This document shows, one piece after another, positions 32,226-43,120 of a stretch of 52,258 nt of DNA. The stretch comes from a virus (lineage: Duplodnaviria; Heunggongvirae; Uroviricota; Caudoviricetes). Position numbers and translations under genes: made by a program. The notes below the pieces were generated by a model that worked only from the letters and a program-made list of their open reading frames with translations, was not told the origin of the DNA and did no database searches. The stretch is taken from the IMG/VR virus record IMGVR_UViG_2721755660_000011. One strand, written 5' to 3'. Position 1 is the stretch's first letter, and every line of letters begins with the position of its first letter.

Positions 32226-32378
32226 TTATTCAGATTTGCGCAGTAAAGGCCGGAGCACGACCAGCACCATCACCACCAGCACACCATCTGCCAGTACCGA
32301 CATCAGCCGTCCGGTAAAATCCACCACCACTACCAGAAACAGCAGGATGGCAGCCAGCACAAGGCGCGCACTTTTCAC
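32226..32378 (-). CDS. Putative small hydrophobic membrane peptide (50 aa, GTG start)
   Basis: Hand translation on minus strand: VKSARLVLAAILLFLVVVVDFTGRLMSVLADGVLVVMVLVVLRPLLRKSE; GTG start overlaps the stop of the upstream 141 aa ORF in a GTGA arrangement. Not in the ORF track (under 60 aa). Confidence 0.3.
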   Translation of the reverse strand: MKSARLVLAAILLFLVVVVDFTGRLMSVLADGVLVVMVLVVLRPLLRKSE

Positions 32379-32800
32379 AGGTACTGCTCCAGTGGTAGCT
32401 GCAGCGCCTGAGCAATTTTCTTCAGTTGCGCTTCTTCATCCGGGCCAATGCCGTCCTGGTCAGCGATATCCAGACACAGGCACAGCACATTAACTGCGTC
32501 ATCAGTACCGGCAACATCAGCCAGCTGACGAAGGGCTTCAGCATTGGCAGAGCGCGGCGACGCTTCATAACGGGCGCGGATATTTGCACTCATTTGTGCA
32601 ATCTCACCGGAGAACGGCGCAAAGGCAGGAAGTGCTGCAATGGTTTTCTCCAGTACCGCGATTTCTTTCGCGTCACAGGTGTCGTCAGCGTATGCAATGG
32701 AATACGCACCCCAGACGGTCGCCTCCACTGCGTCGCGGTTCTCCATCTTCTTCACTTCGGTAATGGCCTTGCGAGTTTTCTTTTTGAAAATACCAAACAT
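32375..32800 (-). CDS. Hypothetical acidic alpha-helical protein (cargo at stx-equivalent position)
   Basis: 141 aa ORF downstream of the phage tRNA cluster and upstream of the holin; composition Ala/Glu/Asp-rich; possible TerB-like fold is a guess only. Confidence 0.5.
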   Translation of the reverse strand: MFGIFKKKTRKAITEVKKMENRDAVEATVWGAYSIAYADDTCDAKEIAVLEKTIAALPAFAPFSGEIAQMSANIRARYEASPRSANAEALRQLADVAGTDDAVNVLCLCLDIADQDGIGPDEEAQLKKIAQALQLPLEQYL

Positions 32801-32974
32801 CGTGACTTTTCCTTTTAGTGGGTGAGCCTGCGCCCGGGGGTGACCAGCCCACAGAGAAAGTCACACTGACCATCCCGTAAGCTCACCCCTGAAAGGCTCT
32901 GTGGTTTTTGATATGCGCCGGGCGTGGCGCGGATACAAAAAAGGCCCGCCAAAGCGAGCCGGGAAAAATAAGTC

Positions 32975-33051
32975 TGGCGCGTTGTACTGGATTCGAACCA
33001 GTGACCGATTGCTTAGAAGGCAATTGCTCTGTCCGACTGAGCTAACAACGC
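32975..33051 (-). tRNA. tRNA-Arg (anticodon UCU), phage-encoded (argO/argN-like)
   Basis: Reverse complement GCGTTGTTAGCTCAGTCGGACAGAGCAATTGCCTTCTAAGCAATCGGTCACTGGTTCGAATCCAGTACAACGCGCCA folds as canonical cloverleaf; anticodon loop CTTCTAA. Confidence 0.8.
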
Positions 33052-33064
33052 ATGATGCAGATAA

Positions 33065-33145
33065 TGGACCGCCATCGAGGACTCGAACCCCGCACCAACA
33101 ACCCTGTTATCGTGTCGTCTGCTCTTCCTGATGAGCTAATGGCGG
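33065..33145 (-). tRNA. tRNA-like gene with noncanonical anticodon arm (possible argN-like or pseudo-tRNA)
   Basis: Reverse complement has a good acceptor stem (CCGCCAT / ATGGCGG), D-arm (GCTC...GAGC), T-arm (CGGGG TTCGAGT CCTCG) and CCA, but I could not fold a standard 5 bp / 7 nt anticodon arm by hand; 81 nt. Confidence 0.4.
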
Positions 33146-33152
33146 TATGTTA

Positions 33153-33228
33153 TGGTGGCCCTTGCTGGATTTGAACCAGCGACCTGGCGATTATGAGTCG
33201 CTCGCTCTCACCACTGAGCTAAAGGGCC
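33153..33228 (-). tRNA. tRNA-Ile2-like (anticodon CAU), phage-encoded (ileZ-like)
   Basis: Reverse complement GGCCCTTTAGCTCAGTGGTGAGAGCGAGCGACTCATAATCGCCAGGTCGCTGGTTCAAATCCAGCAAGGGCCACCA closely resembles E. coli ileX-type tRNA; anticodon loop CTCATAA. Confidence 0.8.
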
Positions 33229-33268
33229 GGGCGCAGGATAATAACGGTACATAACTAATTCTGCAATA

Positions 33269-34327
33269 TCATCCGTTCTGACTGACTAAATCCTGAACTT
33301 CCTTGACCGTCTGCTCAAAACGCTCAGTCTCCAGCTCAACGCCAATTGCACGACGTCCCAGCGCCATCGCTGCTTTGACCGTCGAACCCGACCCCATGAA
33401 AAAATCTGCAACCAGATCTCCCGGACGACTGCTTGCGCTGATTATCTGCTGCAACATTTCTGCCGGTTTTTCGCACGGATGTTTCCCGGGATAGTACTGC
33501 ACCGGTTTATGCATCCACACATCGGTGTACGGCACCTGCACAGTCACACCGAAATACCGCCGCAAATTTTTATATTCTCTCAGCAGTTCCGTATACTGCC
33601 GGTTCAGTTCACTGTATGTGCTGACCAGCTGGTGGTGTGGCTGCTCCAGTTCACCGCGCTGATGTTTTTCTGCTGCAACACGCGCAAACAACGCCTGCAA
33701 TTTGTTGTAATCAGCTTCGTTCGGTAACTGCCACTGACTGGTACCAAACCAGTGCGAAGCCATGTTTTTCTTTCCGGTGGCTTCCGCTATCTGTTTTGAC
33801 GTTATTCCCAGTTCGGCACGAGCATCCCTGAAATACGATATCAGCGGTGCCATTATGTGCTGTTTGAGTTCCCTTTCTTTTGCCGCATAGCCGTCACTTT
33901 TGCCGCGATATGGCCCCTGGTAATGTTCAGCAAACAGAACGCGCTCTGTGGCAGGAAAATATGCGCGCAGACTTTCTTTATTACACCCATTCCAACGTCC
34001 AGACGGCTTCGCCCAGATGATATGGTTAAGCACGTTGAAACGTTCACGCATCATGATCTCAATATCAGATGCCAGGCGATGCCCACAGAACAGGTAAAGG
34101 CTTCCGGCAGGTTTCAACACCCGCCAGAACTGGGCCAGACAGTGGTCCAGCCACTTAAGATAATCTTCGTCCCCTTTCCACTGATTGTCCCAACCGTTGG
34201 GTTTCACCTTGAAGTAAGGCGGATCGGTAACAATCAGGTCAATGGAATCATCAGGCAGGGACTGAATAAAATGCAGGCAATCAGCGTTGATTAAATCAAC
34301 ACTGTTTATTTTTACAGTATTTTTCAT
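33269..34327 (-). CDS. DNA methyltransferase (amino-MTase, likely N6-adenine or N4-cytosine), apparently orphan
   Basis: 352 aa; motif IV DPPY near N-terminus (LIVTDPPYF) and motif I FxGxG near C-terminus (DFFMGSGSTVKAA); no adjacent restriction endonuclease ORF. Confidence 0.8.
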   Translation of the reverse strand: MKNTVKINSVDLINADCLHFIQSLPDDSIDLIVTDPPYFKVKPNGWDNQWKGDEDYLKWLDHCLAQFWRVLKPAGSLYLFCGHRLASDIEIMMRERFNVLNHIIWAKPSGRWNGCNKESLRAYFPATERVLFAEHYQGPYRGKSDGYAAKERELKQHIMAPLISYFRDARAELGITSKQIAEATGKKNMASHWFGTSQWQLPNEADYNKLQALFARVAAEKHQRGELEQPHHQLVSTYSELNRQYTELLREYKNLRRYFGVTVQVPYTDVWMHKPVQYYPGKHPCEKPAEMLQQIISASSRPGDLVADFFMGSGSTVKAAMALGRRAIGVELETERFEQTVKEVQDLVSQNG

Positions 34328-35482: not shown

Positions 35483-35848
35483 CTAACGATCCATCTCTAG
35501 CTCAATTTCTAACATCATTAACATGCCATCAACTACACCTTCAGCCTTTTGCAATAAACGCCCAACCCAGCAATCAGAACGCCCATGTTTACGGGCAAGC
35601 GCCATAAACGTCATACCACCTACATAATAATCCACTAATAAATCGTGCAAATCGCTGTTGTTCTTTTTCAGGCGAGCCATGCACCCACAAATGATCATCG
35701 CGTCATCGTCACAACATTGCGGGCGGGATTTTACTTTTGAAGGGATTAGTCCTTTAAATCCTGCAGCAATAGACGACCAGGTGACATCCTCGTGATTATT
35801 TGCCACCCATGCCCCCCAACGTTCAAGAACCATTTGAATATCACGCAT
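35483..35848 (-). CDS. Q: Late gene antiterminator Q (QuuD-like)
   Basis: [74 protein letters not shown] matches my recollection of DLP12 QuuD; start placed at internal Met of ORF 35483..35863. Confidence 0.8.
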
Positions 35849-35865
35849 CAACTTTCTCCACAAAA

Positions 35866-36855
35866 TCAGGCCAGAACGCCAATTGCCAGCGCACGATCGA
35901 TAAAACGAAATATCAGCTCCAGCTGGGAGCCATACTTCTCTTCAAATGCCACGGTATCCGCATGCAGCTCGTCGTGATGCTTTCTGCACAAAGGCAACAC
36001 AAAAAGGTCATGCGCTTTTGTTCCCATTCCACCCTGACCGTGACCTATCAGGTGGTGGGGATCATCAGCAGGCTTTCCACAACATGCACACGGCTGTGTC
36101 TTAACCCAGCGCGTGTACTTTTCATTAACCCAGCGGCGACGTTTGGGGCGTAACATAAAAGACTCCGGCGACTCCGGATCCACTTTCAGCGCCAGCACCT
36201 TTTTCGCTTTATCCTGGATGATGCTGGTGGCAGGAACCGAAGGCACAAGGTCACACTCCCGGGTGACAGACGGCACAACAGGCGTCGGTAATCTCAGTGC
36301 CTTACGGGCTGCACTTTCCGGTAAGGCATCCGCCAGGTCATTACGAGCCAGCCACCAGCATAGTTCCGGCATTGTCACAACGTGACTGTCATCAAAACCG
36401 AGATCCCGACGCACGACAGATAACACCCACCGGGCACAGTTATCCGTTGCCATTGATTCCAGCCGTTCCGTGAACTGATCGCGCAGCTGGTTATCGCAGT
36501 GCCAGCACAGACGGATTGCGCCCGGAGCGTGTCGCATTGTGGTCATATTCTCGCTGTGCCAGTCGGAATGAGGCCACTGGCAGCCTTTTTCACGAAGTAA
36601 CCAGCGTTCAAGACATTCCACGCCACCAGCACGACGGATTACCGCCTCATTGCGGAACATAGCCCGAACGGCAGGATCATCCGCCAGCGGTTGTGATGCC
36701 GCCGGAACGGCACCACTGGCAAAAGATGAATAACGTTCCGGCTCAGGCTCCAGCAGGACACGCCCCTGCATAAACAGGGGCATCAGTTCTGAACCGGGTC
36801 TGAACAATACGATCCCCATACGTGGGGCAATTTCAGGGGTCAGTAGTGCTCTCAA
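35866..36855 (-). CDS. DUF968-like phage protein (YdfU-like), Cys/His-rich C-terminus
   Basis: 329 aa; adjacent to Q as ydfU is adjacent to quuQ in Qin; C-terminal C..CC and HH..H..GG motifs suggest metal-binding, possibly HNH-like. Confidence 0.5.
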
Positions 36856-41960: not shown

Positions 41961-43120
41961 TTACGCCCCCTTACCTCTGAAGAGTTCAGCGACGAATGAA
42001 TAAGACGGGCAAGAAATGCCGCATCGTTAATTCGGTCATACAGACTTACAGCCAGCGGTGATTCAGCTTTTTCCAGCATGGGATAAAGCTGCTGCAACCA
42101 GACCTGATGAATTGATGAAATGTAGGAATAGAGTACGCTGGCGTTATGTGCAACGTCGCTCGGTACAGCGGGCTTTGAAAGCTGTTTCTCCATCTGGTTA
42201 AAGGCATTGATGTATGCCTCCTTGAACTGGGCTGCACGTTTGCCAGTGAAGCCCATTGCCAAGAACGCGAAGCCGTCGCGGGTGATGTGGTAGCAAGGAA
42301 GTTTGCGAGTACCGCCGTTGGGCTGGTGTACCAAAATTGATGTCTCCGCAAAATTGCGGGCACAAAACTCTGGAGAACAATCCAAAATGCGGATCTTTTT
42401 CAGAACATCGTCATGACGTTTAGAGAAGAAGTCAGCAACAGCCAAAGAAGATGTAACAGCCTGACCATCAACGATGGCAATTTCAGGTTGAGAGAGGGTT
42501 GGGAGAGTAGTCATGGTGACAGCCCCGGTAGTCAGTTTTTCAGAAAACTCACCACATGGGACGCCAATCACAGAGGTGGTGAGACGTACAGGGTTGGCGT
42601 TACCGGAGACTACCGAACCCGGCCCGACCGAAGTCGGCCCTGTACGCCCCACCATAATTTGGGCGTAGCAATGCTCATGACACGAAAAAACCGCATGAGC
42701 GCGGTTATGCTCAGTAATCAATTTCAGGACGCCAATCCCGGCACCCGTTTTATAAGGTGCCTGAACAGTGTAACGTCCCGGAATGGCAGAATCAATGTGC
42801 TGGTGGTCCTTCACACTCAACAAAATCACGCCTGAATTTCCACAAAGGACTAAAGCACTCATGCGGGTAGTCTTTGCGAAGATAGATAACGCGCTGTGTA
42901 TCTGGTTCCCAACGAATAACATGGACATAAAGCCCTCTTCCGTCACGAAACCAGCGGTTAAGTTCCTGCACAACTCGCCCCCCACAGTCAGGTAAAGTTC
43001 TCTGTGGTTACTTACAGCCAGGTGATTTGGTAATCTGCATTCATGCCGTAACAACAGGAGTTCAGCGACGCTGACCACCAGCTGTTGCGACAAACGGTTA
43101 TTTGCCGTTAAACTGTTCAT
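41957..43120 (-). CDS. Rha-family (ORF6N domain) phage regulatory protein with unusual ~200 aa N-terminal extension
   Basis: 387 aa; residues from about 205 (EIAIVDGQAVTSSLAVADFFSKRHDDVLKKIRILD...) resemble Rha domain; ATG at 43120 overlaps upstream stop as ATGA, supporting the long form. Confidence 0.5.
   Translation of the reverse strand: MNSLTANNRLSQQLVVSVAELLLLRHECRLPNHLAVSNHRELYLTVGGELCRNLTAGFVTEEGFMSMLFVGNQIHSALSIFAKTTRMSALVLCGNSGVILLSVKDHQHIDSAIPGRYTVQAPYKTGAGIGVLKLITEHNRAHAVFSCHEHCYAQIMVGRTGPTSVGPGSVVSGNANPVRLTTSVIGVPCGEFSEKLTTGAVTMTTLPTLSQPEIAIVDGQAVTSSLAVADFFSKRHDDVLKKIRILDCSPEFCARNFAETSILVHQPNGGTRKLPCYHITRDGFAFLAMGFTGKRAAQFKEAYINAFNQMEKQLSKPAVPSDVAHNASVLYSYISSIHQVWLQQLYPMLEKAESPLAVSLYDRINDAAFLARLIHSSLNSSEVRGRK

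Follow-up and report, generated by a model that had tools for sequence, protein, structure and literature searches.

A tRNA-like gene without an anticodon loop in a lambdoid prophage tRNA cluster, and the family to which it belongs

What kind of gene lies in the middle of a phage transfer RNA (tRNA) cluster when both of its neighbors are canonical tRNAs and it offers no anticodon loop of its own? The question is raised by the prophage in IMG/VR record IMGVR_UViG_2721755660_000011, whose whole stretch of 52,258 nucleotides (nt) is referred to here as the window. Its tRNA cluster lies entirely on the minus strand and comprises three tandem genes:

33153 to 33228, minus strand: canonical ileZ-type tRNA-Ile2(CAU), labeled Met by the software (ARAGORN; Rfam tRNA model, 72.5 bits; tRNA-Ile in RefSeq).
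33065 to 33145, minus strand: 81-nt tRNA-like gene in the argN slot, with an intact tRNA body and without an anticodon loop (sequence; folding; 81.8 bits with our covariance model R1, a score that is partly circular because the gene is among the model's seeds).
32975 to 33051, minus strand: canonical argO-type tRNA-Arg(UCU) (ARAGORN; Rfam tRNA model, 71.7 bits).

With moderate confidence, we propose that the 81-nt gene gives rise to a non-decoding, tRNA-shaped RNA that is probably excised as a tRNA would be, and that its tRNA body is the feature under selection. An earlier sequence-only reading of the window had already taken the outer two genes of the tandem as canonical, which ARAGORN and the Rfam tRNA model bear out.

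The middle gene, whose boundaries at 33145-33065 are exact, escapes standard detection. ARAGORN makes no call between tRNA-Ile2(CAU) and tRNA-Arg(UCU), and on 33040-33165 the Rfam tRNA model finds no tRNA, even with the cutoff relaxed to E ≤ 10. Neither program gave the high-scoring canonical call that would have spoken against the sequence-only reading. Among the curated Rfam families other than tRNA, including transfer-messenger RNA (tmRNA) and small RNAs (sRNAs), none comes near its gathering score on the 81-nt gene. The sole permissive matches, to mascRNA (13.8 bits, T arm only) and to a CRISPR repeat (11.9 bits), are at chance level and were discarded. In E. coli OkiPb01715 the identical 81 nt are labeled 'tRNA-OTHER' by RefSeq, and in the record of phage phiP27 ileZ and argO are annotated while the interval between them is left blank. 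The resemblance of the gene to a tRNA is nevertheless far beyond chance: the parts that flank its third arm equal those of argN, and its R1 score corresponds to an E-value of about 1e-17.

Read on the minus strand from 33145 to 33065, the gene is CCGCCAU-UA-GCUC-AUCAGGAA-GAGC-[AGACGACACGAUAACAGGGUUGUUGGUG]-CGGGG-UUCGAGU-CCUCG-AUGGCGG-U-CCA, and it divides as follows:

33139 to 33145, minus strand: 5' strand of the acceptor stem, CCGCCAU, forming 7 perfect base pairs (bp) with 33069-33075; identical to argN.
33121 to 33136, minus strand: D arm GCUC-AUCAGGAA-GAGC, with an 8-nt D loop that is the family signature (9 nt in argN), as seen by comparison with argN and the family.
33093 to 33120, minus strand: 28 nt (AGACGACACGAUAACAGGGUUGUUGGUG) in place of the anticodon arm and variable loop, from the argN alignment and folding.
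33076 to 33092, minus strand: canonical T arm CGGGG-UUCGAGU-CCUCG, from the sequence and comparison with argN.
33065 to 33075, minus strand: 3' strand of the acceptor stem, AUGGCGG, followed by discriminator U and an encoded CCA, from the sequence and comparison with argN.

All elements of a tRNA body are kept in the window copy (the 7-bp acceptor stem, U8, the D arm with G18G19 and A20/A21, the UUCGA T arm and the 3' UCCA), with zero defects in any of them. In the 28-nt arm, in contrast, no 5-bp stem can be drawn around a 7-nt loop that has U33 and a purine at 37; only closed hairpins are available to it. In these respects sequence and folding agree with the sequence-only reading, which had found good acceptor, D and T arms and no standard anticodon stem-loop in the same interval. 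Folding gives a cloverleaf in which the third arm closes into a hairpin of two near-isoenergetic forms. One has 7 bp and an AGG triloop (-26.7 kcal/mol); the other extends the stem ACGAC/GUUGU by an inner C-G pair and closes with the loop GAUAACA, in which positions 33 and 37 are A and C (-26.5 kcal/mol). In other words, 11 nt separate the two stem strands, and either an extra C-G pair across an A.G mismatch leaves a 7-nt loop or the arm refolds into the triloop. Neither fold presents an anticodon, and C35, the main identity element for arginyl-tRNA synthetase (ArgRS) in E. coli, is absent; the RNA would therefore be expected neither to be read by the ribosome nor to be charged with arginine. 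Two ideas about the arm were rejected. A bacterial group I intron is excluded by size, since 28 nt is far too short. The stretch GAUAACAGG within the arm resembles the peptidyl-transferase loop of 23S ribosomal RNA (rRNA) and the I-SceI site, but this was dropped, as sharing of a 9-mer with 2.9 kb of rRNA would be expected by chance with a probability of roughly 1 in 5 (a rough estimate).

The cluster had been proposed to be a homolog of ileZ-argN-argO, and alignment to that cluster of an Stx2a phage bears this out: apart from the D loop and the segment of anticodon arm and variable loop, the two are the same or almost the same throughout. In Shiga toxin (Stx) phages of the 933W type, argN is the tRNA-Arg(UCG) in the same slot, likewise downstream of Q. 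The two genes do not differ in acceptor stem, T arm, discriminator U or CCA, nor in the spacers that flank them. Whereas argN has a 9-nt D loop, AUCGGGAUA, and the arm CCAGC/CUUCGAA/GCUGG with anticodon UCG and its C35, and is called by ARAGORN, the 81-nt gene has an 8-nt D loop and carries 28 unrelated nt where argN has 23 nt for anticodon arm and variable loop. On this alignment, the divergence is a clean local replacement of the arm and not as scattered decay. No donor of the replaced arm was found: a 49-nt probe, which runs from the D arm through the new arm to the beginning of the T stem and was searched in 5426 complete E. coli genomes, matches a median of one place per genome, plus only 8 phage records, all in the same context. 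As an observation on argN itself, many of its canonical-length alleles in the ileZ...argO clusters of IMG/VR are imperfect, with acceptor strands AUGGCAA or AAGGCGG and T loops CCCGGGU or CUCGGGU, and decoding capacity at the argN slot seems often to have been lost, even in Stx-type clusters.

Comparison beyond argN assigns the 81-nt gene to a family whose members occupy the second slot of the tRNA cluster, which in lambdoid prophages of Enterobacteriaceae is placed between Q and the lysis genes. A search for the 8-nt D-loop class minus the E. coli arm, and then for the D arm together with a CRAC...GUUG stem, yielded more than 70 loci with 45 alleles of tRNA-like genes 73-78 nt long. Common to them are the acceptor strand CCGCCA(C/U), AUCRGGAA as the 8-nt D loop, UUCGAG as the T loop, and a CCA end present in the gene itself. 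In the third arm a stem of 5-6 bp, (G/A)CAAC/GUUGU, AGCAAC/GUUGUU, GGCAAC/GUUGCC or ACGAC/GUUGU, encloses only 4-7 nt; loops include UAAAU, UUAAU, AUGAU, CCAGGU, CUUGGU, CACAGU, GUAC and GCCU. The members follow tRNA-Ile2(CAU) directly and are themselves followed by Thr(UGU), Gly(UCC) or Arg(UCU), and the late regions around them resemble those of lambdoid phages that infect E. coli, Klebsiella and Enterobacter. Short-loop members escape the Rfam tRNA model, and ARAGORN reports them as tRNA-??? with 2-nt anticodons or forces them into Phe, Leu, Ser or Stop. E. coli FAM21845 has a 74-nt copy that RefSeq does not annotate. In at least 606 E. coli genomes a slot gene lies directly before Thr(UGU), in short-loop, Lys-like and degenerate forms that annotation mostly skips.

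The stem ACGAC/GUUGU of the 81-nt gene is that of the type represented by locus L287, with 11 nt between its strands as against 4 in the L287 type, and this stem type together with the D loop AUCRGGAA is common to the 81-nt gene and the L287, L289, L291, L285 and L296 types. Relatives with a short loop at the same slot include L296 (73 nt), L299 and the FAM21845 copy (both 74 nt), L287, L289 and L335. They are like the 81-nt gene in the acceptor strand CCGCCA(U/C), the stem (A/G)C(G/A)AC/GUUG(U/C) and the place right after tRNA-Ile2(CAU); they differ in their loop of 4-7 nt, in that most of them precede Thr(UGU) and Gly(UCC) whereas the 81-nt gene precedes Arg(UCU), and in that their bodies look constrained while the 81-nt lineage is mostly damaged. 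Variants within that lineage are few: at locus L094, three arm changes all keep pairing in the family-stem fold, although the chance of this is about one half (an estimate, with variants too few to decide), and a G35C change breaks the triloop fold and not the family-stem fold.

Several other forms at or near the slot are worth recording. Lys(UUU)-like genes occupy it (L366:2578-2654, L367:2501-2577 and L370 around 400-478) in the E. coli phages PhiR47_1 and Evi and in a chromosomal prophage; their 7-nt loop has C33 (CCUUUAA) or A33 (CAUUUAA) in place of the universal U33, one of them is annotated as tRNA-Lys in GenBank, and the Rfam tRNA model gives that one only 40.4 bits. The tRNA-Thr(UGU) of the Thr-linked clusters (L296, L299, L368 and others) is 100% identical to a chromosomal tRNA-Thr in about 4700 E. 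coli genomes; the phage-borne gene is a host-identical copy and not a nuclease-resistant variant. At L287, L288 and L292-L295 (for example L292:6490-6564), a perfectly folded member with the arm ACGAC-GUAC-GUUGU stands alone; these copies adjoin a LysR regulator and scsB/scsC-like thiol-disulfide genes on contigs of 3 to 210 kb (four of at least 75 kb), and ARAGORN calls such a copy tRNA-Arg(ACG) via a doubtful fold. Finally, L139:3260-3409, from Kluyvera sp., has the same body with a 7-bp arm, UGACUUU/AAAGUCA, and a 9-nt loop, and adjoins an ileZ that lacks its 3' half.

Is the body of these genes maintained? The covariance model R1 was built from 29 sequences, the window gene included. Family members score 85-98 bits with it, argN 72, the allele of phage mEp460 64 and the ordinary neighboring tRNAs 36-46. 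Structure statistics were computed on 44 distinct sequences in a model-based alignment, as MAFFT mis-registers the arms of minority members. In this alignment 95.8% of cells are paired, all 5 arm pairs change on both sides, and at the acceptor pair 7:66, 29 sequences have C-G and 12 have U-A. Covariation scores 0.191, versus 0.105 for shuffled alignments (0 of 500 reach the observed value) and at most 0.071 for slid partners. Across 46-47 complete clusters, the tRNA-like gene has a diversity of 0.093, nearly all of it in loop columns (0.5-0.66 per column), as against 0.046 in ileZ; outside the bases fixed by the search pattern, 10 of 36 body sites vary, compared with 16 of 77 sites in ileZ. 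In the same clusters, variation is saturated in the loop (5 of 6 columns) and in the spacers (2 of 2), and over the whole family, the 81-nt gene included, the loop varies freely in sequence and in length (4-11 nt). The slot is cleanly absent, with ileZ followed directly by the next tRNA, at 17 loci, and filled at 120 or more loci in each of at least three scans. Low variability of the body, compensatory changes and rare loss of the slot together suggest a gene under purifying selection; for the 73/74-nt class, the body is as conserved as the neighboring tRNA-Ile2 despite the absent anticodon loop.

We envision the following scheme. The 81-nt RNA would be co-transcribed with its flanking tRNAs, from a promoter-like element upstream of ileZ to a terminator-like hairpin after argO, and excised by ribonuclease P (RNase P) and 3' trimming as a tRNA is. 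It would then be neither charged by ArgRS nor read by the ribosome and, less certainly, selection would preserve its tRNA body. RNase P requires the stack of acceptor and T arm together with the D/T elbow, and can do without the anticodon arm. The simplest reason for keeping the body may thus be processing: because the spacers of these clusters are only 1-13 nt long, an RNase P cut at the 5' end of each unit would free the 3' end of the preceding one. Some other role that needs the tRNA body alone is equally allowed.

A number of observations weigh against this scheme. Each of its functional steps is one that we infer from sequence. The stand-alone copies without flanking tRNAs (the L287 type and L139) misfit a pure processing role and argue that there is more to the gene than processing. 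The covariation alignment is fitted to the model, which favors structure, and the search patterns fix the D arm and 8 stem bases; these positions were excluded, yet ascertainment may still inflate conservation. The most serious points come from the 81-nt type itself. Of 50 such clusters surveyed in IMG/VR, which represent 22 haplotypes, 33 carry the T loop GCGGGU, only 6 nt long and without UUC, 7 have a T-stem G.G mismatch, phiP27 among them, and further copies carry U8G or acceptor C.A mismatches. The arm probe is matched in 1252 of the 5426 E. coli genomes, 61 at 99% identity or above and 1191 at 95-99%, and the 1191 hold a variant allele, which is the pattern of a decaying gene. The commonest allele, found in phage mEp460 and many chromosomes and unannotated there, combines C13U with the shortened T loop GCGGGU. 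About 9 of the 50 clusters are fully intact, the window copy among them; constraint looks relaxed in the E. coli 81-nt lineage, with the window copy in an intact-body minority. Two further alleles in this material lie outside the 81-nt gene or outside its length class. The phiP27-type ileZ (L002, locus position 3055) has C13A and with it an A.G mismatch within the D stem; 7 clusters show this, and ileZ is still called by ARAGORN. A 66-nt slot allele in IMG/VR E. coli (L239, L253, L263, L270 and others) has lost most of the third arm and carries the compensatory acceptor change U7C/A66G, of which the relative L237 has the U7C half only.

The damage just described is what a plain pseudogene would show, and of the competing explanations this one is the strongest, a serious rival that we nevertheless consider less likely than the scheme above. 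The gene would be a former decoding tRNA of the argN slot that lost its arm and has no role, persisting only through its place between two useful tRNAs and because too little time has gone by for erosion or deletion. Besides the shortened T loop, the T-stem mismatch of phiP27, U8G and acceptor C.A, damaged copies show G-run expansions and a 3' deletion; the high share of variant alleles among arm-bearing genomes, the many broken canonical-length argN alleles and the 66-nt copy entirely without an arm point the same way, and the neighbors decay too, argO being truncated in WCHEC005784 and ileZ in Kluyvera. Decay, however, would not by itself confine the change relative to argN to a clean replacement of the arm. 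Nor does it sit well with the arm stem and D loop that tie the gene to a family with tRNA-like body conservation and compensatory changes, with a window copy whose body is free of defects, or with the rarity of clean slot loss. A degenerate pseudo-tRNA was among the options of the sequence-only reading. That option may hold for the E. coli lineage, in which most copies are damaged, but the gene is not an isolated degenerate argN, as the family shows.

An unlikely alternative, if an attractive one in this context, is a counter-defense role, in which an uncleavable tRNA body without a normal anticodon arm binds, titrates or misleads the tRNA-targeting nucleases of abortive infection, whether from host or prophage, and the free loop reflects an arms race. 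The lambdoid clusters that contain the family also hold Thr(UGU), Gly(UCC) and a CAU tRNA. The OLD nuclease of P2, by which lambda is excluded, cleaves Thr(UGU) and Gly(UCC), as well as fMet(CAU) and others, in the anticodon stem, and phage tRNAs rescue infection (bioRxiv 10.64898/2026.07.10.737580). The slot also has variants whose loop is Lys(UUU)-like except for C33 or A33, and a hypervariable loop on a conserved body is compatible with diversifying selection. In this picture, a body without the target site might occupy the nuclease or imitate its amputated product, and the changing loop would be a trace of the conflict. Yet loop variation does not exceed spacer variation, so that neutrality suffices, and a decoy would face competition from all the tRNA of the cell. 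A resistant phage tRNA was found to act by supplementing the pool and not by inhibiting OLD (bioRxiv 10.64898/2026.07.10.737580), and the Thr(UGU) of these clusters is a copy of the host gene, while host Thr(UGU) gave no rescue (bioRxiv 10.64898/2026.07.10.737580). The stronger proposition, that the slot-2 genes are dedicated anticodon-less tRNA mimics kept by temperate lambdoid phages against OLD, PARIS, PrrC and HepS, with the 81-nt gene as one allele, is one to which we likewise give little credence.

A tRNA-derived regulatory sRNA, whose new hairpin or loop would pair with an mRNA or sponge another sRNA after excision, seems to us quite improbable, although a regulatory RNA was among the options of the sequence-only reading. 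The replaced arm does form a stable, exposed hairpin, identical in about 23% of E. coli genomes; but within the family no part is less conserved than the loop, be it in sequence or in length, where a seed region would be expected to do the reverse, and neither a match to an Rfam sRNA family nor a candidate target was found. Least probable by our estimate is a tRNA that decodes through an anticodon loop of unusual, expanded or contracted form, such as a frameshift or nonsense suppressor; a tRNA of unusual structure had also been entertained in the sequence-only reading. Opening the closing C-G pair lets ARAGORN force some members into 7-nt loops (Phe(AAA), Leu(UAA), Ser(UGA) and a stop-reading UUA), but the window gene offers only the two closed hairpins with no anticodon, near-identical family bodies carry different 'anticodons' with a variable position 33, U at 37 and loops of 4-11 nt, and the Rfam tRNA model rejects the 81-nt gene and its relatives alike.

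The surroundings of the cluster are those of a lambdoid late region. In minus-strand order they read DUF968, Q, methylase, the tRNA cluster, a hairpin, TerB, DUF3927, holin, DUF1327/YdfR, lysozyme and Rz, which places the cluster downstream of Q and also upstream of the cargo (TerB, DUF3927) and lysis genes, the latter as the sequence-only reading had it. The relevant features are:

35866 to 36855, minus strand: DUF968 gene.
35483 to 35863, minus strand: Q antiterminator.
33269 to 34327, minus strand: DNA methylase.
33238 to 33266, minus strand: promoter-like element TTGCAG-N17-TATTAT, ending 9 nt upstream of ileZ, read from the sequence; a promoter role is presumed.
32943 to 32960, minus strand: intrinsic-terminator-like hairpin with a U run, directly after the cluster; a single match, within the expectation from shuffled sequence (mean 1.4).
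32375 to 32800, minus strand: TerB-family gene.

The promoter-like element falls below the threshold of a simple promoter scan; the pattern TTGCAR-N17-TATTAT-N9 stands upstream of 194 of 275 homologous clusters. Within the window cluster the spacers are 7 and 13 nt, as compared with 1-3 nt in most relatives. The TerB and DUF3927 genes (32226-32800, minus strand) lie at the place of stxAB in Stx phages, and in other E. coli prophages, too, the cluster is followed by these two genes. At the end of the prophage, a tyrosine integrase (49637-50800) abuts tRNA-Thr(CGU) (50815-50890), with an aldehyde-dehydrogenase-family gene next (51005-52258); a tRNA-Thr gene, probably thrW beside proA, seems to be the integration site of the prophage. 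Elsewhere in the window, Rfam matches a C4 antisense RNA (82.3 bits; 42572-42659, minus strand) and the Hfq-binding RNA isrK (60.1 bits; 42684-42760, minus strand) side by side, a pair that looks like the antirepressor control module of the P1/P7/P22 type in a lambdoid prophage. An IS009 RNA match (3971-4168, minus strand) reaches 120.6 bits, just over the gathering score of 117.

What would such a gene mean for our view of phage tRNA clusters? A survey credits Stx2e-type phages with only two tRNAs (PMC7366253). Beyond these two published tRNAs, Stx2e-type phages hold a third, tRNA-shaped gene, and about one quarter of complete E. coli genomes have it. Our literature search, which did not cover the original phiP27 papers, found no published description of the 81-nt gene or of the short-loop family. 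The exact content of phage tRNA clusters matters, as phage tRNAs are now read as counter-measures to tRNA-cleaving immunity. If conservation of the body does reflect a function, the family would represent a bacterial case of a tRNA fold kept for a non-decoding purpose; if the gene is only a relic, the slot still marks repeated gain and loss of decoding capacity by phages (Arg UCG, Lys-like UUU, none). tRNA-like and pseudo-tRNA genes in phage tRNA clusters are already known. It is the family-level pattern that is unexpected, with a function that is putative and with an 81-nt lineage that is mostly decaying.

Set beside known systems, the 81-nt gene has three further points of reference. One is annotation: the generic pseudo-tRNA or 'tRNA-OTHER' call is the label that RefSeq gives to the identical sequence, but it is silent on the family, on its conservation and on the specific loss of the anticodon loop. 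The tRNA cluster of phage T4 contains the stable RNAs C and D (species 1 and 2), which are not tRNAs, are processed together with the tRNAs and have no known function. Like the 81-nt gene, they are non-tRNA RNA genes within a phage tRNA operon; unlike it, they belong to a virulent phage and have other sizes and folds. The mascRNA-like RNAs of eukaryotes are cut from longer transcripts by the tRNA-processing machinery. They likewise combine a tRNA-shaped body with a non-standard anticodon arm, and both would be expected to be substrates for RNase P and CCA-related enzymes, although the two are unrelated in sequence.

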